Shown: positions 9,445-41,491 of the stretch, in pieces | How the letters are laid out: every line of letters begins with the position of its first letter | Position numbering within the stretch: position 1 is the stretch's first letter | Assembly (NCBI RefSeq): GCF_000317695.1 | Contig: NC_019771.1 | Location: 2,463,823 to 2,527,822 of the forward strand | DNA length: 64,000 nt | Source: Anabaena cylindrica PCC 7122 | GTDB lineage: Bacteria; Cyanobacteriota; Cyanobacteriia; Cyanobacteriales; Nostocaceae | Reading direction: 5' to 3' | Program-made: the position numbers and the translations under genes | Notes under the pieces: generated by a model | The model's database searches: none | What the model was told of the DNA's origin: nothing | Seen by the model: the letters and a program-made list of their open reading frames with translations, nothing else

Positions 9445-9522
9445 GCTCTCGTGGCGAAATTGGTAAACGCTTCCGTTTGAGGGACGGAATTTTTGCTCTT
9501 TCAAATCCTGTCGGGAGTACCA
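9445..9522 (+). tRNA. aberrant tRNA-like (anticodon GAG) with degenerate T-arm, CCA encoded
   Basis: Acceptor GCTCTCG/CGGGAGT followed by A and CCA. Anticodon stem-loop TCCGT-TTGAGGG-ACGGA. No canonical T-stem could be drawn. Confidence 0.3.
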
Positions 9523-9527
9523 ACTTT

Positions 9528-9602
9528 GGGCGTTTGGCAGAACGGTTATGCGCCTGACTTTTAATCAGGTTAAAACAGGTTCAACTCCTGTAGCGCCCAC
9601 CA
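9528..9602 (+). tRNA. tRNA-Lys(UUU), CCA encoded
   Basis: Acceptor GGGCGTT/AGCGCCC followed by A and CCA. Anticodon stem-loop CCTGA-CTTTTAA-TCAGG. T-arm ACAGG-TTCAACT-CCTGT. Confidence 0.65.
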
Positions 9603-9603
9603 A

Positions 9604-9677
9604 GCCCCTGTGGCGCAATTGGCAGACGTAGCCCGCTTAAACCGGGTTTGTTGCAGGTTCGACTCCTGTCAGGGGTA
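9604..9677 (+). tRNA. tRNA-like, anticodon UAA (Leu codon) in class I body
   Basis: Acceptor GCCCCTG/CAGGGGT. Anticodon stem-loop CCCG-CTTAAAC-CGGG. T-arm GCAGG-TTCGACT-CCTGT. Confidence 0.45.
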
Positions 9678-9751
9678 TGCGGGGATAGAGCATTCTTTGG
9701 CTCGGCAGTTTCATAAGCTGCAAACGGTGAGTGCAACTCTCACCCCCGCGT
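9678..9751 (+). tRNA. tRNA-like, anticodon CAU (Met/Ile2)
   Basis: Acceptor TGCGGGG/CCCCGCG. Anticodon stem-loop GCAGT-TTCATAA-GCTGC. T-arm GTGAG-TGCAACT-CTCAC. It directly abuts the preceding tRNA. Confidence 0.4.
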
Positions 9752-9783
9752 CCATATACAGACTGTCCTCGCTGTCTGCTTTT

Positions 9784-9861
9784 GCTGGTGTAGCTCAATG
9801 TGGCAGAGCGATCGCCGATGTTTGCGATCGGTTGCAGGTTCAACTCCTGTCACCAGCCCCA
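9784..9861 (+). tRNA. tRNA-like with 8-nt anticodon loop, CCA encoded
   Basis: Acceptor GCTGGTG/CACCAGC with 7 of 7 pairs, followed by C and CCA. D-arm TAGCTCAATGTGGCAGAGC. T-arm GCAGG-TTCAACT-CCTGT. The anticodon region GATCGC-CGATGTTT-GCGATC is non-canonical. It ends 6 nt before the transposon end. Confidence 0.4.
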
Positions 9862-9867
9862 GATACG

Positions 9868-10036
9868 TGTAGCGACCTGCAATACTAATCGGTCAAACCT
9901 GCAATCAAGGGATTTTCAAACCAGGATTAAATGCAACTATAAATACACTTCAGCCAGAATTAATTGCAACTGAACCAGGATTAAATGCAACCAACCTGCA
10001 ATCATCCGTTTCAACCAGGATTATTTGCAACTGACC
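9868..10036. repeat. transposon left end (IR-L) with subterminal repeats at 9919-9938, 9951-9972, 9973-9992, 10013-10033 (plus an extra copy at 10113-10133)
   Basis: The reverse complement of 13490-13662 matches this stretch over ~165 bp. Confidence 0.75.
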
Positions 10037-10280
10037 GAAAGTCCTATTAAATCGTTGTTGAGCAGTTTACTCAAAAAACGCTCCAACTTATCAACAAAAG
10101 TATTTGAACTTCAGCCAGGATTAATTGCAACTGAGAGTAAAAGAAACGACCGTTTTTTTTACTCCCATTATTACCATCAAGCAGAACCAGAATCAAATTT
10201 AGTAAAGAAACTCGGTAATTAAATCAAAGGCAACATATACTGTGAGGTAACGAGTTTATTTACTTGTTGGGGTTCCAAGT

Positions 10281-10850
10281 ATGTTGATAGGCTATGCCCG
10301 AATTTCAACAGATGACCAAAATCTGAACCTGCAAATGGATGCTTTACAGCTTGCTGGTTGCGAGAAAATTTACTCCGACCGCACAAGCGGTGCAAAAGCA
10401 GAACGACCTGGACTTTCCTTAGCATTGGAAGTAGCACGGACTGGTGATGTTCTGGTGGTATGGCGGCTAGACCGCTTAGGAAGATCGCTCAAAGATTTGA
10501 TTGAAATGATGGAAACCTTAGATAAGCGAGGAATTGGGCTTTCTAGCTTGCAAGAATCCATCACCACCACGAATAACAGTGGTAGATTAATTTTCCATTT
10601 GTTTGGTGCATTGGCTGAATTTGAGCGTAACCTCATCCGTGAACGCACTACGGCTGGACTTGTAGCGGCACGAGGGCGTGGTCATAGAGGAGGTAGACCA
10701 AAAGCCCTAGATCCAACTAAACGTCAATTAGCAGTAAGACTTTATACCGAAAAACAATACACAATTATTGAAATATGTAATTTGATGGGAATTTCCAAAC
10801 CAACGCTCTACAACTATATTGCAGAGATAAAAACTGAACATGGTACATAA
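10281..10850 (+). CDS. tniR: serine recombinase (resolvase/invertase family)
   Basis: MLIGYARISTDDQNLNLQMDAL...GDVLVVWRLDRLGRSL, followed by a C-terminal HTH (ISKPTLYNYI). It has the typical length of ~190 aa. Confidence 0.85.
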   Translation: MLIGYARISTDDQNLNLQMDALQLAGCEKIYSDRTSGAKAERPGLSLALEVARTGDVLVVWRLDRLGRSLKDLIEMMETLDKRGIGLSSLQESITTTNNSGRLIFHLFGALAEFERNLIRERTTAGLVAARGRGHRGGRPKALDPTKRQLAVRLYTEKQYTIIEICNLMGISKPTLYNYIAEIKTEHGT

Positions 10851-12501
10851 GCAAATCTCTGTAGAGGCACTTATTAATTTACGCCACCGCCTCGACGGAT
10901 TGCCTAGCCGTTGTCAAGAGCGGCGAATTCTCATCGAAGAGACAGCAGCATTATATGGAGTGTCAACAGATACACTATATCGCGCCTTGCGTAACTCATC
11001 ACGCCCCAAATCCATAAATCGCTCAGATAGCGGGACCCCCAGAAAACTTTCACTCGCGGAAATGGAACGCTACTGCGAGGTCATCGCGGCCATGAAAATC
11101 CGCACTAGTAACAAGAAAGGGCGACATATCTCCACAGTCCGGGCAATTGAACTGTTGGAGGAGTTTGGGATGGAAACACCCGATGGTTTTGTCCAACCAG
11201 ATAAAGGTGCGTTAACTAGAAGCACTGTCAATTATTACTTAAAAACATGGGGGTATGATCAAGAACGCATGACCAGGCAACCGCCTGCGGTGCGTTTTCA
11301 AGCAGAGTACAGCAACGAATGTTGGCATTTCGACCTCAGCCCATCTGATTTAAAACACGTAAAACAGCCATCATGGGTAGAACCGGGTAGAGGTAATCCA
11401 TTACTGATGCTTTATAGTATTGTTGATGACCGTAGTGGTTTATGTTATCAAGAATACCACTGTGTTTATGGGGAGGATGTAGAAGCTGCATTACGTTTCT
11501 TATTTAATGCGATGACAGCGAAAACAACCGACGGCTTTGCCTTTCAGGGGATTCCAGAGATGATTTATACGGATAACGGACCCATTGCGAAAAGCCACGT
11601 ATTCCAAAATGTGATGGATTGCCTGAGAATCAATCTTGTTACCCATATGCCTGCGGGTAAAGATGGTCGTCGGGTAACAGCCCGCTCCAAAGGCAAAGTA
11701 GAAAGACCTTCTCGGACAGTCAAAGAAGCCCATGAGACTCTGTATCACTTTCATGAACCGGAAAGCGACATTGAAGCTAACTTATGGTTGCGCCAATATT
11801 TGTTGCATTACAACGACAAACCACACCGCATAGAGCCGCATTCCCGGCTGGAAGATTGGTTGCGAAATATACCTAAGTCTGGCTTGCGTTCGATGTGTAG
11901 TTGGGAGCGATTCTGTACCTTTGCCCGTGAACCACAGCGCAGAAAAGTGGGAACGGATGCTAGGGTATCGGTAGAGGGTGTGGCTTATGAGGTAGAACCG
12001 GACTTAGCAGGAGAAACTGTCGTGCCATGGTGGGGCTTGTTTGACAACGAACTGTACGTAGAAAAAGAAGACCGTCGCTACGGACCATTTTACCCAGTTG
12101 ACGGTCCTATCCCCTTACACCGCTACCGTAAATTTAAGAAAACTAAAACCGAAGAACGGGCAGATAAAATTGCCAATTTAGCTAAAAAGTTGGGTTTGCC
12201 ACGAACTGCCTTGGACAAAAACACGGATTTACAATTTCTGGTGGATAAGTATAAGGAATTGGAGCCAACTGTTACACCTTTTAACGACCCTGACCCATAC
12301 CAAGAATTTACTTATCCGACTGTATTGTTTGCTAAGAGGGCGATTTCTGAACAACTGGCCAGACCTTTGGCTAAATTGTCTCCCGAACAGTTGGCATTCA
12401 TTGATGCCCTGCTGGCTGAGACTCTGAATAAAAAAGCGATTATTGAACGAGTGCGGCAATATTTCCGCTCAAATCAAGGAGAGGAACAAAATGCTCACTG
12501 A
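10840..12501 (+). CDS. tniA: DDE transposase, TniA/TnsB (Mu-type) family
   Basis: 553 aa. The catalytic core has WHFDLS...(D)...YTDNGPIAKSH...(E) spacing typical of Mu/TnsB/TniA. Its start overlaps the resolvase stop and its stop overlaps the tniB start. Confidence 0.7.
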   Translation: MVHKQISVEALINLRHRLDGLPSRCQERRILIEETAALYGVSTDTLYRALRNSSRPKSINRSDSGTPRKLSLAEMERYCEVIAAMKIRTSNKKGRHISTVRAIELLEEFGMETPDGFVQPDKGALTRSTVNYYLKTWGYDQERMTRQPPAVRFQAEYSNECWHFDLSPSDLKHVKQPSWVEPGRGNPLLMLYSIVDDRSGLCYQEYHCVYGEDVEAALRFLFNAMTAKTTDGFAFQGIPEMIYTDNGPIAKSHVFQNVMDCLRINLVTHMPAGKDGRRVTARSKGKVERPSRTVKEAHETLYHFHEPESDIEANLWLRQYLLHYNDKPHRIEPHSRLEDWLRNIPKSGLRSMCSWERFCTFAREPQRRKVGTDARVSVEGVAYEVEPDLAGETVVPWWGLFDNELYVEKEDRRYGPFYPVDGPIPLHRYRKFKKTKTEERADKIANLAKKLGLPRTALDKNTDLQFLVDKYKELEPTVTPFNDPDPYQEFTYPTVLFAKRAISEQLARPLAKLSPEQLAFIDALLAETLNKKAIIERVRQYFRSNQGEEQNAH

Positions 12502-28368: not shown

Positions 28369-28944
28369 ATGTCAATAATGACCATTAAAGATGTAGAACA
28401 AGTTCAAACCGCTTTTAGTGAAGCAGGTTTAGATTACGATGTTGAATTAACAAACGGGAGAATTTCTATTGTGGGTCCTTCGGATATTGTATCTAGTGAA
28501 ATTAGTAGTCGTTTAATTGCTTTCCTCTTCGCTTGGGTAAACCCGCGTCGTTTAGGAAGAGTATTTGATTCTGCTGGTGGTTTTATTTTACCTGATAGCA
28601 ATCTCACCGCACCAGATGTTTCTTTTGTTCGGGCTGCACGTCTGCGTCAAAGTCCCCGTTATTTTGGGGAACTTGTACCAGATTTAGTAGTAGAAATTAA
28701 ATCTCAAAGTGATAGAATTAAACCTTTAGTTACTAAAATTCTCAACTTTATCACATTAGGTGCTGTGATTGGAATTTTAATTGATCCTGATGAGGAAACT
28801 GTTACAGTTTATCGTCATCAAGGTGAACCAACTATTTTAAATAATGGTGATATTTTAACTTTACCTGAACTTTTTCCCGGTTGGGAATTAGCTGTTTCTG
28901 AATTGTGGCCTCCTATTTTTACTGAAGAAGAAACTCAAGGTTAG
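28369..28944 (+). CDS. Uma2-family (DUF820) putative endonuclease
   Basis: VPDLVVEIKSQSDRIKPLVTKILNFITLGAVIGILIDPDEETVTVYRH. Confidence 0.65.
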   Translation: MSIMTIKDVEQVQTAFSEAGLDYDVELTNGRISIVGPSDIVSSEISSRLIAFLFAWVNPRRLGRVFDSAGGFILPDSNLTAPDVSFVRAARLRQSPRYFGELVPDLVVEIKSQSDRIKPLVTKILNFITLGAVIGILIDPDEETVTVYRHQGEPTILNNGDILTLPELFPGWELAVSELWPPIFTEEETQG

Positions 28945-29049
28945 TTTGTTTGATTGGATTAGTTTTTTTGTGGAGTTCTTTCATGAGAAATAGGGAATTT
29001 GTCCTGAAGATAACGGTGTGCGGAGGTTTCTCCGCACTAATCCTTAATT

Positions 29050-29565
29050 TTATTCGTGGATAGTAACTTTGATCATTTTAACTGGAGTTTTGGGGCGATC
29101 GCCTTGTCCCGTTGGAGTGGTTTCAATCGCTTTTAATACATCCATCCCTTCAGTAACTCGACCAAAAACAGGATGCTTGGATTGACCGGGTGTAAACCAA
29201 TCTAAATAGGAGTTGTGGCCAGTGTTGATGAAAAACTGGCAACTGCCACTATTAGGGGCTCCTGTATTAGCCATAGATAGAGTTCCTGGTTCGTTGGAAA
29301 TTTTCCCATCTTCAGGATGCTCATCTTGAATGCAACCATCAGGACCATTACCTGTTCCCGCACGAGGAGAGCTAGGATCTTTACTGTGAGGACAACCAAA
29401 CTGCACCATGAAGTTATTAATCACCCGGTGGAAATGCAGACCATCATAAAAGCCACTTTTAGCCAATTTGATGAAATTTCCAGCCGTTATGGGCATAACA
29501 TCGGTGAATAGCTCAAGAGTAATAGTACCAAGGGACGTTTCAAGGGTTGCGGTGGGATTTGTCAT
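29050..29565 (-). CDS. peptidyl-prolyl cis-trans isomerase, cyclophilin type
   Basis: [20 protein letters not shown]...[26 protein letters not shown]...[18 protein letters not shown]. Confidence 0.85.
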
Positions 29566-29720
29566 GAATATTAAATTACTAATCTGTGCAATGGGTTATT
29601 TTGTCGCTTCTAGTTTACCCAAAATCTTGAACATAATGTTAACTAAAATCCACAACTTTTCAAACTAATAATTTCTACTTGTGATAAAGAAACTCAAGAT
29701 TAGGTTATTTTCTCGGCATT

Positions 29721-30299
29721 TCAATCAGGGAAAGCTAAACCGGTACTCGGATCTCTAATATATAATCCCAGTGTCAAACTCCGCATCACTTCATCCCACA
29801 CAGGTATTAATTGCTCTGCTTGATCTGCCCAATAATCAAAAGTAATTAAACATTGAATATTAGAACCTAAACCAACACAAGTCCGAGAAAAAGCTTCCCT
29901 TGGTTCGGCTTGAGTATCAATAAATTTAATTTCACACCACATAATTCTAGCAGTTTGTCGCTTAACGGTAATCACTTCTCCTCTTTCAATCACATCACGG
30001 CTATCATCTTCCATGATTTTCTTCAAAGTTGATTTGAGGGGAAATAGAGTCCAGTCATTCGGTGGTAGGTGATTGTAGGATAATTCTAAACAACAATCAT
30101 CCTTGGGTGGTTTTTTATCCATGAACTTGAATGATTTTTCCTGTGGCTCAAACACCCAATTTTGAGGAACATTGAAGCGAACTGCTCCCCTCCCGGCTAC
30201 AAAAATCTTATAACCATCAGGCCCTTCCCAGTGATGATCCGGTTTTAAGTCTAGGGTTTCTTTAATCCATTGGAGATTGCTTTTCTTACGCTTGCCCAT
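29721..30299 (-). CDS. hypothetical protein
   Basis: 192-aa ORF with no recognised motif. Confidence 0.45.
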   Translation of the reverse strand: MGKRKKSNLQWIKETLDLKPDHHWEGPDGYKIFVAGRGAVRFNVPQNWVFEPQEKSFKFMDKKPPKDDCCLELSYNHLPPNDWTLFPLKSTLKKIMEDDSRDVIERGEVITVKRQTARIMWCEIKFIDTQAEPREAFSRTCVGLGSNIQCLITFDYWADQAEQLIPVWDEVMRSLTLGLYIRDPSTGLAFPD

Positions 30300-30344
30300 A
30301 ATTAAAATAAGCTCCTAAATTTTAGTTTACAGTTCCAACTATTG

Positions 30345-30509
30345 GTGATAAATTACAGAATTTGCAAAATTTGCTTTTATTCTTCAGTTTCAAATCTAAC
30401 ACCTTCATATAGTAGTTCAATCGGAAATTCAAATTCAATATTTGAAAAAGTGATGATGTCTCCAGTAGTTTAGGGATAGTAAAGCCACATTCTTTCTTCT
30501 CCTCGACAG
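30345..30509 (-). pseudogene. Uma2-family endonuclease 3' fragment
   Basis: ~85% nucleotide identity to the 3' end of the intact Uma2 gene at 51434-51600 (...ttcttcagtttcaaatc.aac.ccttcata...ccagtagt.ta.ggatagtaaagccacattc). It ends at the IS left inverted repeat. Confidence 0.5.
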
Positions 30510-31237
30510 TCAGGGTTAGCGCATCTCAAACCCTATTGACAAGGGGATTTATTTGATATGTGGGAGGATGTTCAAGTGAAACAACTCAAGGTAAGTTAAT
30601 ACATAACCCATCTAGTCAATGTATCTAAGCAATGTCAACAGGATTTAAGAAGAAGTGCAAAACCAGAACATCTGTTAAACCCAGTGTAGACAGTAAAGAG
30701 ATTACCAGTAACTTTCTCCAACACTTTACGGAAATAAAAGACCCTAGAGCAGAAAGGACTCGACTGCATCTACTCACCGATATTATCACTATTTCCTTGT
30801 TGGCAGTCATAGCAGGCGCAGAGGGTTGGGAAGATATTGAGGAATATGGACTAAGTAAAAAAGACTGGTTAGAGACATTTTTAAAACTACCAGAAGGAAT
30901 ACCCAGTCCAGATACATTCAGAAGAGTATTTGAGAGAATAAACCCCAAAGAATTTGAGCAATGTTTTCGGAATTGGGTGCAATCATTAGTGGAGAAATTA
31001 GGTGTAGAAGTAGTTGCTATAGATGGTAAAACTCATCGAGGCTCATATGACCGAGAATCGAAACTAAAAGCCTTACATACAGTCAGCGCATGGGAAGAGT
31101 GAAAATAGGTTGATTCTAGGACAAACAAAGGTCAGTTGTAAATCAAATGAAATCACGGCAATTCCAGCACTATTAGAGACTCTGGTCTCCTCTACTGTAA
31201 TTCCCCTGTCAATAGGGTTTGAGATGCGCTAACCCTG
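30510..31237. mobile_element. ISAs1-family insertion sequence remnant (internally deleted) with ~38-bp terminal inverted repeats
   Basis: IR-L CAGGGTTAGCGCATCTCAAACCCTATTGACAAGGGGA (30510-30550) matches the reverse complement of 31199-31237. The enclosed ORF is only the N-terminal 156 aa of an ISAs1/H-repeat transposase. No clear target-site duplication was found. Confidence 0.6.
30632..31102 (+). pseudogene. ISAs1-family transposase, N-terminal fragment
   Basis: IKDPRAERTRLHLLTDIITISLLAVIAGAEGWEDIEEYGLSKKDWLETFLKLPEGIPSPDTFRRVFERINPKEFEQCFRNWV is the family N-terminal signature. It is truncated at 156 aa. Confidence 0.65.
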
Positions 31238-32773
31238 CTGCGGATTCATGCGAATTAAATCCGTCAAAATACTATCCAAACTACCATTAACTTGAATCCG
31301 ATCAATCTTCTCAGCAATACGTTCTAAAACCTCCAATTCTTTCAAACGCAATGCAACAGGATTATCTTCCATTACTTTGGCAGTATTCAACATACTCCGA
31401 GTAGCAGCAGTTTCTTCTCTGCGTCTGACAACATTAGCTTGTGCAGCTTTTTCAGCTTCCACAACCTTACTCAAAATCGCCTTAATTTCCCCAGGTAAAA
31501 TAATATCTTTTACCCCTACAGAATCTACTTCAATTCCATAAGCTGCGGCTTTTTGGCGAATATATTCAGAGATACTTCTATCAATTGCTCCTTTATCTTC
31601 CAATAAAGTATCTAAAGTTCGTTCACCAACTGCACCACGCAAGGCAAATTGCAATTCTTTGTACAAAAATCCAGTAATATCTGATAACGCATTTTTGGCT
31701 TTTAATATGTCTTGAATGCGGAAACCAGCAGTCAAATTTAACCGCAGAGGTACTTTATCTTTAGAGAGGATTTCTTGACCAGAAATTTCCATGTTTTGCA
31801 ATCGTAGGTCAATGGTTTCCGTTTGCCAAGAACGTCCAAATGACCACCAAGCATTTAATCCTGGTTGTAATTGTGTTTGAAATTCCTGATTAATATATAA
31901 TAGTCCAATATGTTGAGGAGGAACTTGACAAATATGTAAATAGTTCCGACTCAGTGTTTTTACTTCTGCTGTTCCTTCGACCAATTCAGAAATTAATGCA
32001 GGTGGTAATTTGGCATTATTGCTAATATCAATAATTTCTACTTCCACACCTTGCCAAAATAATTTACGGCTTGTGGGTGGTAAAATAGAAATTACTTTCC
32101 CCCTATATCGGACAATTGCGACTTGTGAAGGCAATAATTCCACGATTTCACAGTAAGCAGCAACAAAATTTGGATGTTTTTCAATGAGGATATCTTCCAG
32201 GGGAAAATCTGGGTTAGGGACGATCCGGCTGATATTCCGCACTGCTACAGTCTTATCTATTGACCAAAAAGCATATTCTCCTGGTTCTAAAGGTCGGACA
32301 AAATTATTTTGAAGATATAGTAAACCAATCTCAGATTCAAAGATTTGGAATTTCTTCAGTCCATTTAGCGAAAATGAGCGTAATTGTTGGACAAAGTAAT
32401 TAGGTAATTCCCAATTTTCTTCTAAGTTAAAAAGATGAGATTCTACTTCTATGAAACCACGCCAAAAAGCTCGTAATTGATTAGGGGCAACACTTATCCA
32501 ATTCTGACCCAGACGAACTAAAGCAGCTTCGTTGAATGCGGTTCTCACAATCAAGAGATATTTTTGCAGTTCTGTACCATGATTTCGCAATAATAATTCT
32601 AGGTTTTCGATTTCTGCTTCTGGTTCGTTGAGGTCATGAGTTCTAATTTGCCAATGACGACCAAAATAAGTATATGTACCAGGCTGCAAAACTTTCTTAA
32701 AGTCGCTGCGGTGATATAAAATGCCAATTTCATTAGGTTTGATGTAAAATGTTTTCCACATAGTAATTTGCAT
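31229..32773 (-). CDS. SPFH/band-7 domain protein with four N-terminal ~100-aa repeats
   Basis: The C-terminus (GEIKAILSKVVEAEKAAQANVVRRREETAATRSML...ALRLKELEVLERIAEK) is typical of SPFH/stomatin-like proteins. The N-terminal repeats are GILYHRSDFKKVLQPGTYTYFG / GLLYLQNNFVRPLEPGEYAFWS / VAIVRYRGKVISILPPTSRKLFWQ / GLLYINQEFQTQLQPGLNAWWS. The stop codon lies in the IS inverted repeat. Confidence 0.55.
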   Translation of the reverse strand: MQITMWKTFYIKPNEIGILYHRSDFKKVLQPGTYTYFGRHWQIRTHDLNEPEAEIENLELLLRNHGTELQKYLLIVRTAFNEAALVRLGQNWISVAPNQLRAFWRGFIEVESHLFNLEENWELPNYFVQQLRSFSLNGLKKFQIFESEIGLLYLQNNFVRPLEPGEYAFWSIDKTVAVRNISRIVPNPDFPLEDILIEKHPNFVAAYCEIVELLPSQVAIVRYRGKVISILPPTSRKLFWQGVEVEIIDISNNAKLPPALISELVEGTAEVKTLSRNYLHICQVPPQHIGLLYINQEFQTQLQPGLNAWWSFGRSWQTETIDLRLQNMEISGQEILSKDKVPLRLNLTAGFRIQDILKAKNALSDITGFLYKELQFALRGAVGERTLDTLLEDKGAIDRSISEYIRQKAAAYGIEVDSVGVKDIILPGEIKAILSKVVEAEKAAQANVVRRREETAATRSMLNTAKVMEDNPVALRLKELEVLERIAEKIDRIQVNGSLDSILTDLIRMNPQQG

Positions 32774-33104
32774 ATTTGGGCGATAAATGATTTATTGTAT
32801 TTACTTGTAATTACATGCTACATAACATTTTTTACTCTGTCAATACAAGTGTTCACAGTTTATGTGTGGGCAAAAACTTCGCCAAAACTGGATTAAGAAG
32901 AATGTAACTTTTTCCTAGCTGCTCCGTAGCAACCCAGAGCAAGAAAACATCCTGCAAATATGCCGTTCGATTGTCCTTATGGAAACCGAAGGGACAAACT
33001 CAAGTTAGGGAGAAAAGCAGTTGCGCTTACTCATTAACTGTAGCCATTAAGCATCACCCTTGCGAGTAATAACCAACAGCAGAACACTTGCACCGCAGAG
33101 TTAA

Positions 33105-33190
33105 TGAAGATAACACGGATTTGAACCGTAGGATTTCTCCTTTACCACTTGCTACTTCCCAAAAGTAGTGTCCTTTAACCCGGACAGGGT
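33105..33190 (-). tRNA. tRNA-like sequence (T-arm TACGG-TTCAAAT-CCGTG present; acceptor could not be paired)
   Basis: The minus-strand GGTTCAAATCC T-loop and an anticodon-like hairpin CTACT-TTTGGGA-AGTAG are present. No 7-bp acceptor complement was found, so this may be a pseudogene or a mis-parse. Confidence 0.25.
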
Positions 33191-33192
33191 TG

Positions 33193-33266
33193 GTTGAAAG
33201 TACAGGATTTGAACCTGTTACAGATCGATTAAAAGTCGATTGCTCTACCAAATGAGCTAACTTCCG
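33193..33266 (-). tRNA. tRNA-Lys(UUU)-like
   Basis: Minus strand: D-arm TAGCTCATTTGGTAGAGCA. Anticodon stem-loop ATCGA-CTTTTAA-TCGAT. T-arm ACAGG-TTCAAAT-CCTGT. The acceptor pairs over 6 bp. Confidence 0.5.
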
Positions 33267-33268
33267 GG

Positions 33269-33341
33269 GGTTTGATACAGGATTTGAACCTGCGACGGGT
33301 TGATTATAAGTCAACTGCTCTACCAACTGAGCTAATCAAAC
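33269..33341 (-). tRNA. tRNA-Ile(UAU)-like
   Basis: Minus strand: acceptor GTTTGAT/ATCAAAC. D-arm TAGCTCAGTTGGTAGAGCA. Anticodon stem-loop GTTGA-CTTATAA-TCAAC. T-arm GCAGG-TTCAAAT-CCTGT. Confidence 0.55.
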
Positions 33342-33551
33342 GATAGAATAGGTTGGAGGACTCAGCGGTATACGCTCATACTAGAGTTTGGCGCACCAGT
33401 TAGGTATACAGAACCTAAACTATAGCTTTGTAACTTTACTGCTATCCCACTTCAAATGTAGCATATTGTAATTTGCTATGAATTTTTTTTTAATTCTTGC
33501 CAGAATCTGAGGGTTAAACTAAACTAAGTTTGTAGACTTAGCTAAAAACCT

Positions 33552-33797
33552 ATGGAAACTGTAAATATCCATCAAGCTAAAACGAATCTCTCACGTCTAT
33601 TATCCCGTGTAGAACATGGGGAAGAGATTATTATTTCTAACCGGGGTGTTCCCGTCGCTAAGTTAGTTCCGTTTAGTGTTTCGTCTCACCGCAGAGATAG
33701 TTTAGGACAAGATCGAGGAAAATTTGTAATTCCAGAAGACTTTAATGCACCTTTACCAGAGGACATTTTGGCAGCGTTTGAGGCTAATGAGGAGTGA
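33552..33797 (+). CDS. type II antitoxin (Phd/YefM-like)
   Basis: 81 aa, ...NIHQAKTNLSRLLSRVEHGEEIIISNRGVPVAKLVP. Its stop overlaps the start of the downstream PIN gene. Confidence 0.7.
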   Translation: METVNIHQAKTNLSRLLSRVEHGEEIIISNRGVPVAKLVPFSVSSHRRDSLGQDRGKFVIPEDFNAPLPEDILAAFEANEE

Positions 33798-34198
33798 AAC
33801 TTTTACTGGATACACAGTGTTTTTTATGGTGGTTTGCTGAACCTGAGCGTTTGCATGAAGAAGCGATCGCACATATTGCTGATGAAAGCAATGAACTATG
33901 GCTTTCTGTAGCTAGTGTGTGGGAAATGGGGATAAAAGTTGCAATTGGTAAGTTACCATTACCAGAACCACTGGATAGTTACATTTCTAGCCGCATGATG
34001 AAATTGGGGGCGAAATCTTTGGAAATTACAGCTTCTCATGCACTCAGAACGGTGGCTTTACCGTTGCATCATCGAGATCCTTTCGACAGAATGCTCATTG
34101 CACAAGCACAGATGGAAAGTATGACGCTTGTGACTGCGGATTCAATGCTTAAAGAGTATCAAGATACTGCTATTCTTTGGGCTGGGAATAAAGGTTAG
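33794..34198 (+). CDS. vapC: PIN-domain toxin VapC
   Basis: MKLLLDTQCFLWW...SVASVWEMGIK...ADSML has the PIN acidic residues. It is 4-nt overlapped with the antitoxin gene. Confidence 0.75.
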   Translation: MKLLLDTQCFLWWFAEPERLHEEAIAHIADESNELWLSVASVWEMGIKVAIGKLPLPEPLDSYISSRMMKLGAKSLEITASHALRTVALPLHHRDPFDRMLIAQAQMESMTLVTADSMLKEYQDTAILWAGNKG

Positions 34199-34261
34199 TT
34201 TGGGAAGTGCGGCTACAATGAATGCTTACCGAAGCGATCGCACTCAACTCTATAATATTCC

Positions 34262-35426
34262 TCATTCAGATAAAATAATTGTAGCTAATCGTTCCTCAAC
34301 TTCTTGAATATAATCTGTTAAACCTGTATCAACTCCTCTTTCTCGTAGATGTTTTAAATTTGTATCTTCCCAACACTGCTTTTCCCGTTCCATATCGTTT
34401 CCTGTTAGCTGTTCAACTACTACTTTTACATTTCTCATTCGTTCAGGTTCTTTCTCAGAAGTAGCACGTAATCTGTGCGACTCTATGCAAGGATGAAAAC
34501 TCAATTTATTTTTGATTTCTTCAAGAATTTGTTCCTCTTCTTGATTAGATGCAATAAACCCATTTAAAACCCATGCTTCACGTTTTGGATCAGCCGCACC
34601 AATGACAATTTCTAATTTAGGTATTCCATTAATATGTTTTAAACGTGCTTGCTCAATTCCTTCTTTACGTTCCGGTTGATTATCTAAATCACGGATAAAA
34701 ATAACAGCTTTAATATGTCGTCTTTTTTGTAAAAAACGTACCAAATTAAGAACTTTAATAGATGCTGCACCATCAGCTTCTAAAGATACACCCTTACTAT
34801 AATGACCTAAATATCTGGGTTCCTTATATTTTAGTTGTTTTTTTGCATCGACTCAGCTTTTCTTCTATGAATTGAAATTTATCTGGAGCTTCGTCACGAA
34901 GAGAATCTAAAGTAGGTGCTAATCCTGAACCGTCAAATTCAACTCTTGGCGTAATTTCTTCACTGTAAGCTGGTTTAGCGAGATTGGAAGCTATTAATTT
35001 TAAATAAATAGTGTTTTTTAAAGATTGAGGAATTTTGGATATATCTCTAAAACGTGGATCTTGATCCCAATCATATTGATGTCCATCTATACTTAATATT
35101 ATGATGGAATTGTGATTATAAATTTTCTCTTCTTCAATACTGTAGAAAAATTTCCACTTTCTCTTAATATTATCTTGCCAATAACCACTCGCAGTTATAG
35201 ACATCCTTTTTTCACCCATTGTTGTAATAAATTGATGTAGATTTTCATGTTTAAATATTTGTGTAGAGGATGAATAAGTAAGCATACTTAAACTATACAA
35301 AGCTTGTAAAACCGTTGTTTTACCAGCACTGTTTTTTCCTACAATTCCATGTAATCGGGAGTTATCGAAATTGAGTTCTGTAGATTTATGGCTTTTGAAA
35401 TTATGAAGTATTAGTTTTTCTAGCAT
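34262..35426 (-). pseudogene. AAA_21/OLD-family-like ATPase, split by a frameshift at a T7/A7 homopolymer (ORFs 34824-35426 and 34262-34852)
   Basis: The N-terminal ORF has the OLD/AAA_21-type start MLEKLILHNFKSHKSTELNFDNSRLHGIVGKNSAGKTTVLQAL. The downstream ORF stays open in frame up to 34852 without a start codon, overlaps by ~29 nt in another frame, and carries a Walker-B-like hhhhD block (HIKAVIFIRDLDNQ) plus ...PKREAWVLNG. The combined length of ~388 aa matches the family. Alternatively the downstream part is a separate DUF4276-like partner. Confidence 0.5.
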
Positions 35427-35438
35427 ATTTTTTATAAA

Positions 35439-35663
35439 TCACAATAATTCAGGAATATATTTATTTTCATAGTTTTCAATTAATGCACCAATTACTTCCA
35501 TAAGAGATGCGAGAGGATGAGTTTCATCTTCACCAACTCGATCAATAAGAGAATCAAGTATATTAACCAAGTATTCATATTCCTCTTCTGTGTGAGGAAC
35601 AAAAACATTTTTGGCAATAGATGACCAAGCGGTGATAGTTTGATTGATGTTTAAACTTTGCAT
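35439..35663 (-). CDS. HigA-like (COG5499) N-terminal domain protein, truncated (no HTH)
   Basis: TEEEYEYLVNILDSLIDRVGEDETHPLASLMEVIGALIENYENKYIPE matches the N-terminal module of HigA-type antitoxins. Confidence 0.4.
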   Translation of the reverse strand: MQSLNINQTITAWSSIAKNVFVPHTEEEYEYLVNILDSLIDRVGEDETHPLASLMEVIGALIENYENKYIPELL

Positions 35664-36082
35664 TATTCTTTTTTTGAATGTACCTCAAAAGCCAAATCTG
35701 CACGGTAAAAACACACATCAAACTCTAAAAAGAAGTTCATACGCCCTAATAATAAAGGTACATCATCAGATAAGCACCACGCAAAAACTAAGCGAACAGG
35801 CTCAAATGATCCAATCTGGGCAGATACCAGTAAACCTCTTGCCTCTACTGGTGCTAAATTGCCAGCTAATATCACAGAAGTAGTCTGTTCTTCCCAAATT
35901 GCACCTAGCTGAATACCTACAGTGTATGGGAGAACGTTAACACTTGCGCCAGTATCCAATAAACCGGAAACATCTACCGATGAGTTACGATAAGTAAGTG
36001 TTAATGGTAACTTTGGTAGAGCATCAGGAACACCAAAGGTATCATATCCCTCTGTAAAGGCAAATCTTTGAGTTTTAGCCAT
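35663..36082 (-). CDS. retropepsin-like aspartic protease
   Basis: LLDTGASVNVLP has the D-T/S-G-A active-site motif, in a 139-aa single-domain context. Confidence 0.7.
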   Translation of the reverse strand: MAKTQRFAFTEGYDTFGVPDALPKLPLTLTYRNSSVDVSGLLDTGASVNVLPYTVGIQLGAIWEEQTTSVILAGNLAPVEARGLLVSAQIGSFEPVRLVFAWCLSDDVPLLLGRMNFFLEFDVCFYRADLAFEVHSKKE

Positions 36083-36299
36083 TGTGCTTTTGATCGTCCG
36101 CTTCTAGTAGTTGAGCAAGTTGATGTGCGGCTGCATGGGAATTAAGCGGGGATAAAATAGAATAGGTTGCTCCCTGTTCTAATGATGGTTCTTCATCCCT
36201 AGATAATTCGGAGACTAGAAACTGCATTACTTTTAGTTTGTCTGCACGATTTAGATTTCGCAGGGTAGGAAATAGTTCTATGGCGTTCATAATTGTCAT
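36075..36299 (-). CDS. hypothetical small protein (upstream partner of retropepsin gene, 8-nt overlap)
   Basis: 74-aa ORF translationally coupled to the protease gene. Confidence 0.4.
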   Translation of the reverse strand: MTIMNAIELFPTLRNLNRADKLKVMQFLVSELSRDEEPSLEQGATYSILSPLNSHAAAHQLAQLLEADDQKHNG

Positions 36300-36413
36300 A
36301 GTAGAGGGAATTTCATATTTCTATTTTTCCACAAGTTTCATGATTGTGCGATCGCTCTTTGGGATTTGAAAAGGTGCGATCGCAATTTGCGATAATGCAC
36401 CCTAAATGACAGT

Positions 36414-37685
36414 TTACTCAGTAAGCAAACTTAGTCCAAATATCCAGGCAGGTGGGTTATTACTGGTATAGTCACCTCTAAAGATACCTGTGATGGGAGA
36501 TTCGACGGGTCCAAACACAACTTTCCATGTTTTGTTTAAACGAGGTGAGAATACTTTTATAATATGAAGATTACAGGACATAGGTATGTCCATATAGGCA
36601 TCATAGCCATTAAATTTTTCGGGATAGACACGGAGAAGATATGTTTCTTGAGTGACTTTTTGACCATCAATAGTTTCAAGTTCAATTTCCTCATACCAAT
36701 AGTCTCGTTCTTGAGGATGATGAGTTGCAGAATTGAAAAGCCTATTTTCCTCCATACGAATTTCTTCTACTACATCTTCATCTGCACCATATAAATCTAG
36801 TAAGCGCGAGAAGGATATAATATGAAATGAACATCCCTCTGTTTCTCGCCTAAATTCATCTACAAGTTCATATCTCGGATATAAAGCTTTTTTCTCGGAT
36901 CTATAAAACCAATCATGCTTCTCTTCGCCTGAAACAAAGATAACGTGGCTTTTATTCGATTTTCCAATTTCTAATATCGTCAGCCAGATTAGAAGATCAC
37001 CAATTCCTAAGTCTGGCTTACCTCCATCCTTATAACCCGGTGGATTTTTATGCAATATGAGGTTTTTCAAATCTTCTTTGACTTTATTTTGATCAATTTC
37101 TGGCTCTATAATTACACTTTTATTAAAAATTTCAGCGTAAATTAAACTAACTGGATCATTCCAAGTCCACCCACTAATATGATCTATTACAGAGCTAATA
37201 GCTTTCGTGTATTTTTTAATAAGTTCATTAATTTCTTTTTCAATCTCAAGAGTTTCTTTATATGCTTCTAATGACTCAAGAAGTGGGTACTTTCCTATAT
37301 CAAATTTATGTTGTGATGAATTCTTTCGAGTTAATTGTTGGTAAACTTCTGCTATCTTAGTAGGTCTATTCTTAACAAATTCTCTAGCAGCTTGCGCTGG
37401 TATTATTAGACGATTATTTTGTACTAACTCTCTGTATATCTTTTGAATCTGATTAAGGCTATTTGTGCCTGTCGTATATGGAACAAGTAAAGTATTTGTA
37501 TCGAGGACAATAATTGCATTATCTTTGATATCTTCAACTGGCTTGAGTACATTAGCGAATAATGAGGTTGCATCAGGAAAAATCCGATTAGCAATAAAAA
37601 TATCAACTTCACTTTGTTCTGATTTACCTTGATTTGGTGACATAATTTTAAACTCCAATTTACATAATTTTTTAGATGAACACAA
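36414..37685 (-). CDS. PIN-like domain protein with large C-terminal extension
   Basis: NAIIVLDTNTLLVPYTTGTNSL (N-terminal PIN acidic core) and ...KPDLGIGDLLIWLTILEIGKSNKSHVIFVSGEEKHDW. 423 aa. Confidence 0.5.
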   Translation of the reverse strand: MCSSKKLCKLEFKIMSPNQGKSEQSEVDIFIANRIFPDATSLFANVLKPVEDIKDNAIIVLDTNTLLVPYTTGTNSLNQIQKIYRELVQNNRLIIPAQAAREFVKNRPTKIAEVYQQLTRKNSSQHKFDIGKYPLLESLEAYKETLEIEKEINELIKKYTKAISSVIDHISGWTWNDPVSLIYAEIFNKSVIIEPEIDQNKVKEDLKNLILHKNPPGYKDGGKPDLGIGDLLIWLTILEIGKSNKSHVIFVSGEEKHDWFYRSEKKALYPRYELVDEFRRETEGCSFHIISFSRLLDLYGADEDVVEEIRMEENRLFNSATHHPQERDYWYEEIELETIDGQKVTQETYLLRVYPEKFNGYDAYMDIPMSCNLHIIKVFSPRLNKTWKVVFGPVESPITGIFRGDYTSNNPPAWIFGLSLLTE

Positions 37686-37877
37686 AGTACATAGTGATGT
37701 TATCTAGAATAGACTAATCTTTTACATAGGAAGCATTATTTAGAAACATGATTTTAGCTTTTTGCTCATCCATTTGTAGCAATAAGTGTCTTAAATCATG
37801 TAAGGCATTTTCTATGAAAGGAATAACAAAGCTATCATCATTAAATGGTTCAATTTCATCCTCAGCTTGAGAAATTG

Positions 37878-39311
37878 GGTTCTTCGGTAGTTGTTATGCC
37901 AAACTATTAGCTACACTCACTAAATAATATTAAAAAATGTATCAATAAATGACTAAAGGTATTGTAGGGGTTGACATACAAAGAGCATTTATTATTAACT
38001 ATAAATGCAATCCAAATTATTTTTAGATAAACTTAAAGTTATGACTGGCAAAAAAGGTATTAAAATTCTAACAGAAATTCTGGATTTAAGCGGTGTAAAA
38101 GTTGTATCACATCGCCTTCATACCGGAATTGGAATGATTTTACAAATTGAACAAGAAAATTCATTTGCTACCTGCCCATATTGTGGCACAACCAGCCATA
38201 AATTACATCAAAATCATAGACATATTATTAAAGACCTCCCTTTTGGAGAAAAAGAAATATTTTTAGAAATTAATCGCCGACAGTTTAAATGTGAACAATG
38301 TAAAAAACCATTTAGTGAAGATTTAGATTTTGTTAAAAAGAAAAGAACTTTTACAAATCGCCTTGCAAATAAGACAATACAAGAAGTTTTAGAAAACGAC
38401 ATTCATAGTGTAGCAGCAAAAGGTATAGTAACAAAAGACGAAATAGAAAGAATGTTAAAAGACGCATCATCAGAATTACCAGATTTAAAACCTATAAATC
38501 TAAAAAGACTGGGAATTGATGAAATAGCTTTGAAGAAAGGACATGGGAATTACTGTGCAGTATTAGTAGATTTAGATCAGAGCAAACTAATTGCGATTTT
38601 AAGCGGACGAACACAAGAAATAATCAGGAAAACCCTTATGGGATGGGGGACAGAGATTCTAGAAAATATAGAAGAAGTCAGTATAGATTTGTGGAGTGGC
38701 TATAAAACTTTAGTAACAGAATTAATGCCAAATGCTCAAGTAGTAGCTGATAGATTTCATGTAATGACACAGATTAACAAAGAATTAGATACACAAAGAA
38801 AAAGGGAAAAACGGAAAGTTGAAGATTTAATCAAGAAAGCAAATACAACAGAAAAATCTAAATATGAAGAAATATTAGCTGGATTGAAGAATAGTAAATA
38901 TCCCTTACTTAAAAATGAAGATAAGTTAACCCAAGAGCAATTAGAGAAACTGATTCAAGTTAAAAATGTCTCGCCTATTTTGAAGGAAATGCACGAATTT
39001 AAAGAAAAGATTAGGCAAATTTTTAATACTACACAAGATTGGTATACGGGAGTTTTCAAATTAGGTATGTGGTTATCGAGAGCTAAAAAATACTTCCCAA
39101 ATAGCAACAATACTATTATTCGTTGGTATCAGGAAATTATAGCCTACTTTGATAATAGGACAACCAGTGGTACTGTGGAAGGAATTAATAACAAGCTTAA
39201 ACTAATAAAACGTTCGGGATATGGATTTAAAAACTTTGAAAATTTCCGAATTAGATGCTTATTAAGTTGGCATTATGTTTAATAGTTTAGCATAAAAAGT
39301 ACCGAAGAGCC
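37878..39311 (+). mobile_element. ISL3-family insertion sequence (1434 bp) with 8-bp target-site duplication AGAAATTG
   Basis: IR-L GGTTCTTCGGTAGTTGTTATGCCAAACTATTA pairs with the reverse complement of IR-R GGCTCTTCGGTACTTTTTATGCTAAACTATTA. The direct repeats agaaattg lie at 37870-37877 and 39312-39319. Confidence 0.85.
38005..39282 (+). CDS. ISL3-family transposase
   Basis: 425 aa. Zinc finger CPYCG...CEQCKKPF. DDE region GIDEIALKKGHGNYCAVLVDLDQSKLIAIL...VSIDLWSGY...FHVM. Confidence 0.85.
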   Translation: MQSKLFLDKLKVMTGKKGIKILTEILDLSGVKVVSHRLHTGIGMILQIEQENSFATCPYCGTTSHKLHQNHRHIIKDLPFGEKEIFLEINRRQFKCEQCKKPFSEDLDFVKKKRTFTNRLANKTIQEVLENDIHSVAAKGIVTKDEIERMLKDASSELPDLKPINLKRLGIDEIALKKGHGNYCAVLVDLDQSKLIAILSGRTQEIIRKTLMGWGTEILENIEEVSIDLWSGYKTLVTELMPNAQVVADRFHVMTQINKELDTQRKREKRKVEDLIKKANTTEKSKYEEILAGLKNSKYPLLKNEDKLTQEQLEKLIQVKNVSPILKEMHEFKEKIRQIFNTTQDWYTGVFKLGMWLSRAKKYFPNSNNTIIRWYQEIIAYFDNRTTSGTVEGINNKLKLIKRSGYGFKNFENFRIRCLLSWHYV

Positions 39312-39911
39312 AGAAATTGTAACTTCCATTCTTTCATGTATTTCTTTGATATCGTTAATAACATCTATGTTATAGAGATTCCAAGAAAAAATCTTGTATT
39401 TATTGCTTTTATAGACATCATTACTCCATTTTGAAGCAATACTTTTATAGAATTTTGAGTTAAATTCTTTCTCAGTCATTGATTTCAGTATTCTATAAGT
39501 TTTAACAAAAGACACTAGAGAATCATAGTTGCTATAAAGTTCTCCCCAAATTGCCGATTTAATTTCATACTCCTTGTTTTTTTCTTTGAACAAATCAACT
39601 GATTCTTTAACAATTAAAGATATTAAAGTTGCCGGAGGCAGTAAATATACAAGATGATCTAAATCATGTAGGTAATTTATTCCAAGCGGTAAAGAAATAA
39701 GAGATAGACTTATAATTGATAACTTCAAATTCTCATTTTTTTCAGTATGAGCAATAATATCTTTAATATAGCCCTGCCTCCAATTAAGCCAAATAATAAG
39801 GAACATAAAACCAATCAACAAATTTTCCATAATATTTTCTTTCATAAAATGTGGGAGCATAAGTTGTGGAATGCAGATATCTGTCAACTTTAAACAAATG
39901 AAGTATATCAC
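39312..39911 (-). pseudogene. membrane protein gene disrupted by the ISL3 insertion (remaining 3' part at ~37722-37877)
   Basis: The ORF 39279-39911 takes its last ~11 codons from the IS. The in-frame continuation ISQAEDEIEPFNDDSFVIPFIENALHDLRHLLLQMDEQKAKIMFLNNASYVKD* lies on the other side of the IS. Confidence 0.5.
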
Positions 39912-39945
39912 CTTTTACACAAATGATATTATTGATTAACAAAAA

Positions 39946-41250
39946 TTAACTCCTTTTATAAACCACTTCCATTCTCAACTTCTCCATCTCAATCTTCAAC
40001 CGTTCATTCTCCATTTTCAACCCTGTATTTTCATCCTTAATCAACTCCACCTCATTCCGTTTACTCAAAGCCTGATTAATTGCCAACTTCCGCATATCTA
40101 AAGAGAACCAACGTTGATATGTTTTCGTATGAATCTGCACACTATGACCCAAATTATCCGCCGCAGCTTTAATAGGAATCCCCAAAATATGCGCTCGAAT
40201 TGCCCAACCATGACGTAAATCATAAGGTTTAAAATCTAAACCTATTTTTCTAAACCACCAACTCACTCTTTGAATTAAAGCCGTGATTTCTGCATGATTA
40301 TTTTTATCTTTTTTACTAATTGCTATTGCCAACATTTCTAAATACTTCGGATTTCTTAAATCAAATTCATCAATCCATTCTTTATATAAAGGCAAAGCTT
40401 CTCTTTCACCAGTTTTACAATCTTTATCAACTTTCCATGTTAAATCTATATTTTCATCACTTAACCACCAAGCAATATGAGGATTAATAAAAAGCTCACG
40501 GGGACGTAAACCAAAAACCGCTAACATTCCATAAATCCAGCGCCATAATTGCCAGCTATCTTTCACATCTTGATTAACTTGCTTACCTCTGTTATTTAGA
40601 TATTCATCAAACTTGTAGAATCCTGTAACTATTTCCTGATCTGTGGGAACATTCCGAGAATTACTCTCAGGCATTTTGGAATACTTAGATAAATCAATTT
40701 CAATTTTAAAGGTCTGACAAAAAGCAGAAATAGCTCTAGCGGCATTATATTTTGCCCATTCTTTATCTAGTTTTTCAAGTGAAGCAATCAAATTTTCCGC
40801 AGTTGCTAAATATTGAGGATTAGTGTAGCGTTTTGTTCGGGAAAAATAATAGAAAAAAGTATGCTCGCTTTTAGTAGTGCGTTGATGGGTTTTAAAATAT
40901 TCCTCTTCAAACTGTTCGAGTAATTCTCCTATAGTTGTTAAATCCTTTTTAATGGACTCATTTCCTAAATATTTATCAGTCCAGGTAAATGTTTTTCTAG
41001 CAATTAATTTTCCTAATTCATAAGCTTCCTCTTCTGCTGTTTTTAGTCCATCCAAGTTTGCGGGAATATTCAGAGTGATATTGTATTGTTTTCTTCCCGT
41101 TTTCCTTGTGTCCTGATCTCCCGGTTTAATTGGTAACGTTGCCCGTAATTGCAGAGATCCATTTGATTCTCGAATTGTTACTCTCGTCTTCGCAGACTTC
41201 AAACGCAGATTTACTTGTTCTAATTCCAGTAGAATTTTTTCTTTCATCAT
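39946..41250 (-). CDS. xisA: site-specific tyrosine recombinase XisA (nifD-element excisase)
   Basis: 434 aa. C-terminal catalytic region RPRELF...YDLRHGWAIRAHILGIPIKAAADNLGHSVQIHTKTYQRW has the R...HxxR...Y arrangement. Position and orientation match xisA of the Anabaena nifD element. Confidence 0.85.
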   Translation of the reverse strand: MMKEKILLELEQVNLRLKSAKTRVTIRESNGSLQLRATLPIKPGDQDTRKTGRKQYNITLNIPANLDGLKTAEEEAYELGKLIARKTFTWTDKYLGNESIKKDLTTIGELLEQFEEEYFKTHQRTTKSEHTFFYYFSRTKRYTNPQYLATAENLIASLEKLDKEWAKYNAARAISAFCQTFKIEIDLSKYSKMPESNSRNVPTDQEIVTGFYKFDEYLNNRGKQVNQDVKDSWQLWRWIYGMLAVFGLRPRELFINPHIAWWLSDENIDLTWKVDKDCKTGEREALPLYKEWIDEFDLRNPKYLEMLAIAISKKDKNNHAEITALIQRVSWWFRKIGLDFKPYDLRHGWAIRAHILGIPIKAAADNLGHSVQIHTKTYQRWFSLDMRKLAINQALSKRNEVELIKDENTGLKMENERLKIEMEKLRMEVVYKRS

Positions 41251-41480
41251 CCTTGGTGTTGCAGATTAAGAATATAGATTTATTGCACGCAGAGACGCAG
41301 AGTCACAGAGAGTAAGAGTTGAGAATTTTCTCGTTCCCAATCCAATCAGAGTTTGGGAACGAGAGGTTGGTATTAGCCTATATTTAGACTAAAAATAAAT
41401 GTGTTATCTGCATACATTGTTTATCGCTGACATTGCTCACTGCAAACATAGCGAAGTCAAAAGCTATTAAACCATTAGAA

Positions 41481-41491
41481 GAACTACTCCG
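41481..41491. repeat. XisA-type recombination site, right copy (GAACTACTCCG; 9/11 identical to left copy)
   Basis: The core TACTCCG is shared. The flanking codons continue NifD (GPYHGYDGF). Confidence 0.75.

Follow-up and report, generated by a model that had tools for sequence, protein, structure and literature searches.

The 3'-nifD excision element of Anabaena cylindrica PCC 7122 has been described as a 15.19-kb element with a TACTCCG core and the recombinase gene xis Anacy_2214, located at NC_019771 2490117-2505306 (Hilton et al. 2016, Table B). Quantitative PCR indicated that the element is excised in ~71% of heterocyst genomes, compared with ~0.4-0.5% of vegetative genomes (bioRxiv 10.1101/629832). 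Among the genes carried by such elements, an "ATPase found exclusively in elements" was reported for six nifD-1355 elements, with its function called unclear (Hilton et al. 2016). A second described system with a bearing on this locus is PDC-M52, which belongs to the PDC systems, a set of 145 untested candidates identified through "guilt by embedding" in BREX, DISARM and type I restriction-modification loci (bioRxiv 10.1101/2024.01.29.577857). PDC-M52 corresponds to cassette CAS_00170, for which the supplement gives the cassette identifier alone (Payne et al., bioRxiv 10.1101/2024.01.29.577857). In the literature, we found PDC-M52 by name in no paper and a connection between retropepsins and cyanobacterial antitoxins in none. 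Here we analyze a stretch of 64,000 nucleotides from A. cylindrica PCC 7122 (the window; positions 2,463,823 to 2,527,822 of NC_019771.1, forward strand) that contains the 3'-nifD element, focusing on the interval 34262-36299. An initial annotation had viewed this interval as a partly decayed anti-phage island consisting of a frameshifted ATPase, a HigA-like fragment and a retropepsin with a coupled small open reading frame (ORF).

All of the ORFs named in the initial annotation are present where it had located them, and the placement inside the nifD element is confirmed. The two TACTCCG cores are found at 26295-26301 and 41485-41491, with a spacing of exactly 15,190 bp, and they delimit the element at 26295..41491. 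The middle part of nifD is contained in the ORF 25842-26333, ending at GGATTACTCCG (26291-26301), and the nifD reading frame picks up again past ACTACTCCGG at ~41483, after the second core. The tyrosine recombinase gene of the element, xisA, occupies 39946..41250 on the minus strand, with the Pfam domains XisAC_N and XisAC_2nd recorded on its orthologues. The element agrees with the published one in size and core sequence and has the characteristics of an xisA-type nifD element at nifD position about 1355, that is, a terminal xisA, TACTCCG repeats and an interrupted nifD. The stretch comprises intact Phd/VapC, PDC-M52 and PIN_8 genes, an orphaned short HigA and a dead ATPase/Toprim-like pair, and we consider it quite probable that three small modules, unrelated to each other and carried by the nifD element, make up a patchwork in this interval. 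The content is mostly ordinary mobile-element cargo and nothing in it is categorically new; only the retropepsin/small-partner pair has real biological potential, as it is old, strongly constrained, cyanobacteria-wide and repeatedly located beside xisA.

Both genes of this pair are intact and lie on the minus strand. The retropepsin-like aspartic protease (35663..36082, 139 aa) matches the PADLOC profile PDC-M52B with E=1.9e-60, with residues 1-138 aligned to profile positions 1-138 of 139, and the PDC-M52A-like small partner (36075..36299, 74 aa) matches PDC-M52A with E=4.5e-7, residues 4-42 covering profile positions 1-39 of 86. The A and B genes are neighbors on one strand, arranged in the order of the PADLOC model. 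The small ORF and the protease ORF share 8 nt (ATGGCTAA), in line with the translational coupling proposed earlier, and the protease stop in turn overlaps the next ATG by 1 nt (TAATG). The pair had been presented as an uncharacterized bacterial system, which holds with respect to experiments, but it is already listed as the PADLOC candidate PDC-M52.

The protease is 100% identical to an A. cylindrica "retroviral-like aspartic protease", and the search retrieved 3109 homologues. Its catalytic residues D43-T44-G45 are embedded in the invariant motif LLDTGAS, followed by a second invariant motif, LLLGRMNFF, which we take to be equivalent to the GRD/N motif of retropepsins. Residues L41, L42, D43, T44 and G45 together with the GR motif are invariant in 18 out of 18 diverse homologues. 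The match to Pfam Asp_protease_2 is slightly below threshold (23.1 bits for a cutoff of 24.3, E=1.2e-4), and a PF13650 match is on record for many close homologues. One-lobe retropepsins of this kind need to dimerize. For the small protein, the unstable antitoxin family Unstab_antitox (PF09720) is weakly matched by 20 of 26 family members, the best with E=2.5e-4. Sequence searches of the PDB with profiles of the protease, the small protein and the short HigA-like protein described below returned spurious matches (ankyrin in the case of the protease, NapA, Mre11) or none.

To follow the distribution of the pair we used a scan of one genome per species, which yielded 122 protease loci; all neighborhood counts given below derive from the best 80. 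In 78 of these 80 loci, the protease gene is directly preceded by a homologue of the small ORF, with the 8-nt overlap retained in 40, so the adjacency proposed in the initial annotation is conserved in other cyanobacteria. The hosts include Nostocales, Microcystis, Planktothrix, Pseudanabaena, Chamaesiphon, Pleurocapsales, Leptolyngbyaceae and others. When compared with distant copies, both genes have saturated synonymous divergence (dS) and a non-synonymous divergence (dN) of 0.13-0.29, and dN/dS of the small partner is ~0.07-0.15, again at saturated dS. The combination of saturated dS with low dN indicates that both genes have been under strong purifying selection over the long term. Near the pair, no further gene shows general conservation in the 80 loci, nor is there another conserved neighbor outside the clade associated with xisA. 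Nostoc sp. LEGE 12450 carries two diverged copies (L011 and L054). A scan of viral contigs revealed no relatives of the protease subfamily, and PHROGs gave no match for the protease, the small ORF or the partner protein of the ATPase discussed below. The pair is an intact, translationally coupled and strongly conserved two-gene module.

In 18 of the 80 loci, xisA precedes the pair on the same strand, and nifK usually lies farther upstream. These 18 comprise essentially all loci with a protease at least 82% identical to that of the window, and their xisA orthologues are 81-95% identical. The distance separating the small ORF from xisA varies between 96 bp and 4.7 kb. In A. cylindrica UHCC 0172 and a Nostoc metagenome-assembled genome, the genes appear in the order xisA, ATPase, partner, small ORF and protease, and in the window the pair is separated from xisA by the PIN_8 gene, an ISL3 transposase and a 210-aa ORF. 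The 18 xisA-proximal loci are related elements and not independent acquisitions, and one PDC-M52 lineage has long been part of the cargo of the xisA-type nifD element, with greater constancy than the ATPase. This link between the retropepsin pair and xisA is a new, if modest, result. At three loci from Nostoc and Atlanticothrix (L016, L028 and L047), just 96-303 bp separate the end of xisA from the small ORF downstream of it on the same strand, and here xisA may be co-transcribed with the protease pair.

We infer that the pair most likely represents an autonomous toxin-antitoxin (TA)-like module that consists of a protease effector and a small neutralizing partner. In such a module, the small protein, which in its N-terminal half is similar to the "unstable antitoxin" family, would hold the protease, an obligate homodimer, in an inactive state by binding to it. 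Once infection, stress or element loss had removed the partner, the freed protease would cleave cellular or phage proteins, leading to growth arrest. Several considerations weigh against a TA-like module. PDC-M52 is a putative "guilt-by-embedding" candidate for toxicity or defense; the AlphaFold2 model of the protease is unusable, with a predicted local distance difference test score of 35, and the fold rests on motifs and near-threshold Pfam matches; the small protein of the window itself has no Unstab_antitox match at E<=1; and the protease is ~70-97% identical across orders, which is unusual for a toxin or defense gene.

Part of the same evidence could point to a dedicated processing system, in which the protease would mature or degrade the small protein (a precursor, signal or regulator) or act on another specific cellular substrate; SpoIIGA and PerP are known bacterial examples of such systems. 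Very strong purifying selection on both genes over saturated dS, high sequence conservation across cyanobacterial orders, the absence of the subfamily from the viral contigs scanned and the weak antitoxin-family signal are all compatible with this alternative. Points against it are the patchy presence (122 loci among the species-level genomes scanned) and the variable neighborhoods, two diverged copies in a single genome, the location of the pair on an excision element beside other TA genes, and its discovery embedded in defense systems by Payne et al. Considering both sides, we regard a processing function as a rather unlikely but serious alternative and retain the TA-like module as the preferred interpretation. 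A still bolder proposal, to which we assign a quite low probability, is that PDC-M52 constitutes a new kind of TA or abortive module with a retropepsin-type toxin and that its xisA lineage serves as an addiction module of the nifD element. The pair would then penalize vegetative cells that excise the element and lose the non-replicating circle, which, if true, would help explain why xisA-type nifD elements persist. A protease-toxin addiction module would represent a new toxin chemistry for TA and defense systems and provide a testable reason for the long retention of nif-interrupting elements.

The gene with the ATG that overlaps the protease stop codes for a full-length, short HigA-like protein of 74 aa (35439..35663, minus strand). 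Its initial description as HigA-related and devoid of a helix-turn-helix (HTH) is supported, but the view that it is a fragment is not, because it is HigB that is missing and the ORF has the normal length of its family: the best 120 of 1230 homologues span 73-92 aa, mostly 74-78 aa, implying that the 74-aa ORF is a complete member of a naturally short, HTH-less family. No significant match was obtained with Pfam for the window ORF or with NCBIfam for the window ORF and 18 family members; the Joint Genome Institute annotates the short family as HigA. A tblastn search detected no HigB in the window. In Anabaena PCC 7108, a 92%-identical gene follows, with a 1-nt overlap, a 95-aa PF09907 HigB gene whose product shares 39% identity with HigB of E. 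coli (E=3e-22); downstream of its short HigA, PCC 7108 has the Phd/VapC pair and the Band 7 gene in common with the window. The adjoining HigB expected of a HigA is therefore present in the PCC 7108 relative and absent from the window. DNA homology to the PCC 7108 module starts 8 nt before the ATG of the short HigA, inside the last protease codons, which indicates a recombination joint.

With this anatomy, the gene is best read as a toxin-less orphan short antitoxin left by rearrangement, and its position beside HigB in PCC 7108 suggests, by analogy, that it may have a neutralizing role. One result weighs against the relationship with HigA: when the short-HigA profile is compared with E. coli HigA, the expected N-terminal region is aligned, but the match is non-significant (hhalign E=0.066). 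At another locus, L006 (6418-6440), the first 15 nt beyond the protease stop (TAATGCAAACCTTAA) agree with the beginning of the short HigA gene before the similarity ends, a remnant which suggests that the joint between protease and HigA predates this strain. The remnant of the HigA-like 5' end in L006, together with the 1-nt overlap of the HigA-like ATG with the protease stop in both the window and Anabaena sp. WFMT, could be taken to mean that the 74-aa protein is a third part of the protease module, regulating or neutralizing the protease within a three-gene operon. We consider this very unlikely, given that a HigA-like gene is found behind the protease in only one of the 80 loci, that the family otherwise occurs beside HigB or within other TA clusters, and that homology to the HigB-HigA module begins exactly at the joint 8 nt before the ATG.

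The remaining part of the interval contains two ORFs on the minus strand, one of 160 aa (34262-34744) and one of 200 aa that carries the ATPase N-terminus (34824-35426). The initial annotation had joined them across a T7/A7 run into one frameshifted protein of ~388 aa. The switch of frame is real, as a second frame is open from VDAKKQLKY... over the end of the ATPase ORF, but there is no homopolymer frameshift and no 388-aa protein; the interval holds the remains of two genes and a 732-bp deletion. When a 387-aa two-frame reconstruction was used as the query in a homologue search, the matches split into two non-overlapping classes, each covering about half of it, namely 375-aa AAA_15/AAA_21 ATPases and 256-275-aa "hypothetical proteins". 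Among the matches listed, none covers both halves, the maximum coverage is ~58% and there are zero fusions. Intact ATPase relatives read ...EEKLSRIVPNVRK... at the relevant position and continue for 182 more residues, and the intact partner starts with MIEFIVIVESGADARTA..., with DDAKKQLKY arriving only at residue 63. In A. lutea, the ATPase and partner genes overlap by 8 nt.

Nucleotide comparison (blastn) with the A. lutea locus L003 is collinear on either side of a sharp break, as window positions 35428-34848 correspond to 9999-10579 and positions 34849-34553 to 11310-11606. Relative to L003, 732 bp are absent from the window; the same 732-bp gap is seen against A. cylindrica UHCC 0172 (L005), and the alignments with L001 and L012 are interrupted at this point or close to it. 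The deletion junction is at 34848..34849 (minus strand) with a 2-nt GA microhomology, and the lost segment comprises ATPase codons 194-375 and partner codons 1-62. What remains of the ATPase gene is codons 1-193 (34849..35426, minus strand), the ORF continuing out of frame to a stop at 34824. As the genes occupy different frames and 732 is divisible by three, the ATPase frame enters the partner gene out of frame and ends after CKKTTKI. The partner gene retains codons 63-258 (34262..34849, minus strand), without the N-terminal strand bearing the invariant residues E9 and D13. The ATPase remnant keeps Walker A (GKNSAGKT) and lacks the signature, Walker B and H-loop, which in the intact ATPase P0001 are found at residues 252 (SEGT), 275 (LLDDVEQGLHP) and 310 (STHSP), with Walker A at residue 30.

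The truncated 200-aa ORF and an identical gene order are present in 10 contigs from independent assemblies, indicating that the truncation is not a sequencing artefact. With a dN/dS of 0.17, the ATPase stub does not exceed the intact copies (0.22), which indicates that the deletion is real and recent. A 732-bp deletion fused the two genes out of frame, in all likelihood by a single illegitimate-recombination event, and both the ATPase stub and the partner stub are non-functional; in this respect the description of the stretch as partly decayed and riding on the excision element was accurate. Counting genes from xisA as Anacy_2214, the order suggests that the stub is Anacy_2207 and that this gene is the element-exclusive ATPase of Hilton et al. 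2016. For annotation purposes, Anacy_2207 should not be "repaired" as a frameshift, nor should it be scored as a functional defense gene.

The homopolymer itself is an A7 run on the minus strand at 34838-34844, one base away from the position given initially (34837-34843). It reads GCA AAA AAA CAA (AKKQ) in the partner frame and is native and of the right length for that frame, which continues as DAKKQLKY across the run, identical to the intact partner P0007. Resequencing of the run, suggested as a check, would have nothing to restore. Programmed frameshifting at A7 was also considered and rejected, as any fusion would remain without Walker B and the Toprim glutamate. The overlap of the two frames at the A7 run and the OLD/AAA_21-like N-terminus are all that speaks for a single ~388-aa OLD/AAA_21 ATPase split by a +1/-1 error or mutation in A7/T7, in which a one-base correction would restore an ATPase-DUF4276 fusion, and we find this extremely implausible in view of the absence of fusions and of homologues covering more than ~58% of the reconstruction among the matches listed, the 732 extra bp of the relatives that code for signature, Walker B, H-loop and the partner N-terminus, the correct length of A7 for the partner frame and the recurrence of the same sequence in 10 assemblies.

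Other loci are broken at this pair as well. In Anabaena sp. WFMT (L004, 6641-6955, corresponding to window 35138-34211), an independent and larger deletion has removed most of the ATPase and all of the partner, and the difference between the two deletions implies that decay of the ATPase/partner pair in nifD elements is recurrent. In the metagenomic Nostocales loci L001 and L002 (10001-11430), an intact 375-aa ATPase is followed by a 101-aa Uma2 fragment in place of the partner, which is another way of breaking the pair.

With respect to the class of the intact system, the ATPase belongs to the defense-type ABC/AAA_21/OLD-like ATPases, as proposed; Pfam and PADLOC searches assign the family to defense-type and not to housekeeping ATPases. 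The N-terminus in the window matches AAA_15 at 9e-12 in Pfam and mad3/AriA at ~1e-11 in PADLOC. A full-length ATPase is covered end to end by Pfam AAA_21 (2e-28) and in PADLOC matches HEC-01A (1.7e-33) and AriA of PARIS (9e-29), as well as mad3, AbiLi, PtuA and Old. The complete set of ATPase motifs is present in intact relatives and absent from the window copy, which has Walker A only. The downstream frame indeed encodes a partner-type protein, which is separate and has Toprim-like motifs, but the proposed likeness to DUF4276 was not borne out. No match to DUF4276 (PF14103) was found for the window ORF, P0007 and P0070, for 32 close members at E<=10 or for 34 divergent members at E<=1, 66 family members altogether; one UniRef name labels P0070 as a "DUF4276 family protein". 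At normal thresholds, the window ORF, P0007 and P0070 have no Pfam or PADLOC match.

An exhaustive profile search showed that the partner family is large and stand-alone, with 1078 clusters at 50% identity and a typical length of ~250 aa. Residues E9, D13, D117 and E154 are invariant and D119 nearly so, giving the pattern E...DxD...E, and single members weakly match HEC-01B (4e-4), PDC-M25B, mad4, Toprim (6e-3) and RloB (2e-3). The partner is probably a Toprim-like nuclease, and the intact system would then combine an ABC ATPase with a separate Toprim-like protein, in the class of AbiL, PARIS, HEC-01 and the mad3/4 proteins of MADS. The ABC ATPase and Toprim parts that form one polypeptide in OLD nucleases are encoded here by genes of 375 aa and ~258 aa, with no fusion among the matches listed, and because the ATPase and the Toprim-like part are separate polypeptides, the system is not of the OLD family in the strict sense. 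An observation that argues against a defense function is that the related HEC-01 system gave zero protection in published phage assays.

Elsewhere in the element, an intact pair of a Phd/YefM antitoxin (81 aa, Pfam 8.7e-12) and a PIN/VapC toxin (134 aa, 4.9e-15) is encoded on the plus strand at 33552..34198, convergent with the ATPase/partner remnant. The 423-aa PIN-like protein (36414..37685, minus strand) described initially is an apparently intact PIN_8-domain protein (Pfam PIN_8 2.5e-33, profile 1-227 of 227), and it matches phrog_9788 of PHROGs at 2e-44. We considered it as a partner of the protease pair and rejected it, as it is present in none of the 80 protease loci. A full-length ISL3-family transposase gene (38005-39282, plus strand) lies between PIN_8 and xisA, and a transposase-like fragment of 156 aa (30632-31102, plus strand) is found near the Band 7 gene, which together suggest ongoing rearrangement within the element. 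By gene order, the Band 7/SPFH gene (31229-32773, minus strand) corresponds to Anacy_2203 and an Alr1449-family gene (29721-30299, minus strand) to Anacy_2200, which belong to gene groups common to nifD-1355 elements (Hilton et al. 2016). A scan of 33400-38000 for promoters and terminators gave fewer matches than shuffled sequence.

Two tRNA genes are located within the 15.19-kb element at 33191-33341 (minus strand), tRNA-Lys(UUU) and a tRNA-Ile whose UAU anticodon is encoded in the genome, an uncommon situation in bacteria; conservation of this stretch extends to Anabaena PCC 7108 (L084) and Anabaena sp. WFMT (L004). Outside the element, the window contains an array of 16 tRNA genes (7283-9861, plus strand), one of them irregular (tRNA-??? 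with a 4-base anticodon, 9784-9861), at a location assigned in the literature to a 74,986-bp prophage-like 5'-nifD element. Directly upstream of the middle nifD fragment, an 847-aa ORF with collagen-like GxP and Ala-rich repeats and its neighboring ORFs (22119-25521, minus strand) resemble tail-fibre genes of a phage, positioned at the end of the 5'-nifD element.

Comparison with known systems places the modules of the interval as follows. Like HEC-01, AbiL (AbiLi/AbiLii-RloB), PARIS (AriA/AriB) and mad3/mad4, the intact relatives of the ATPase pair have an AAA_21/AAA_15 ATPase gene followed by an overlapping gene for a ~250-aa E...DxD...E protein. They differ in that the partner has no significant match to any catalogued B-component, and the window copy is a deletion remnant without the catalytic motifs of both proteins. 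In contrast to OLD and Gabija GajA, the ATPase and the Toprim-like part are encoded apart. The PCC 7108 relative of the short HigA resembles E. coli K-12 HigB-HigA (b3083/b3082) in being positioned directly downstream of HigB; compared with E. coli HigA, the short family is only 74-78 aa long and without the helix-turn-helix, and the window is without higB.

The protease shares with the A2-like proteases of clan AA (Asp_protease_2/gag-asp_proteas) the hydrophobic-hydrophobic-D-T-G-A-S motif, the later G-R-x and a one-lobe size of ~140 aa, whereas it falls just below the Pfam cutoff and matches no solved structure by sequence. Unlike SpoIIGA, PerP and APRc, it consists of nothing but a soluble domain and has an obligatory small partner gene. 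PADLOC lists PDC-M52 as a computational candidate, for which we found no description of function, mechanism or domains in the literature. Beyond that listing, the new features are the retropepsin nature of the larger protein, its Unstab_antitox-like partner, the breadth of the pair across cyanobacteria and its xisA-proximal lineage.

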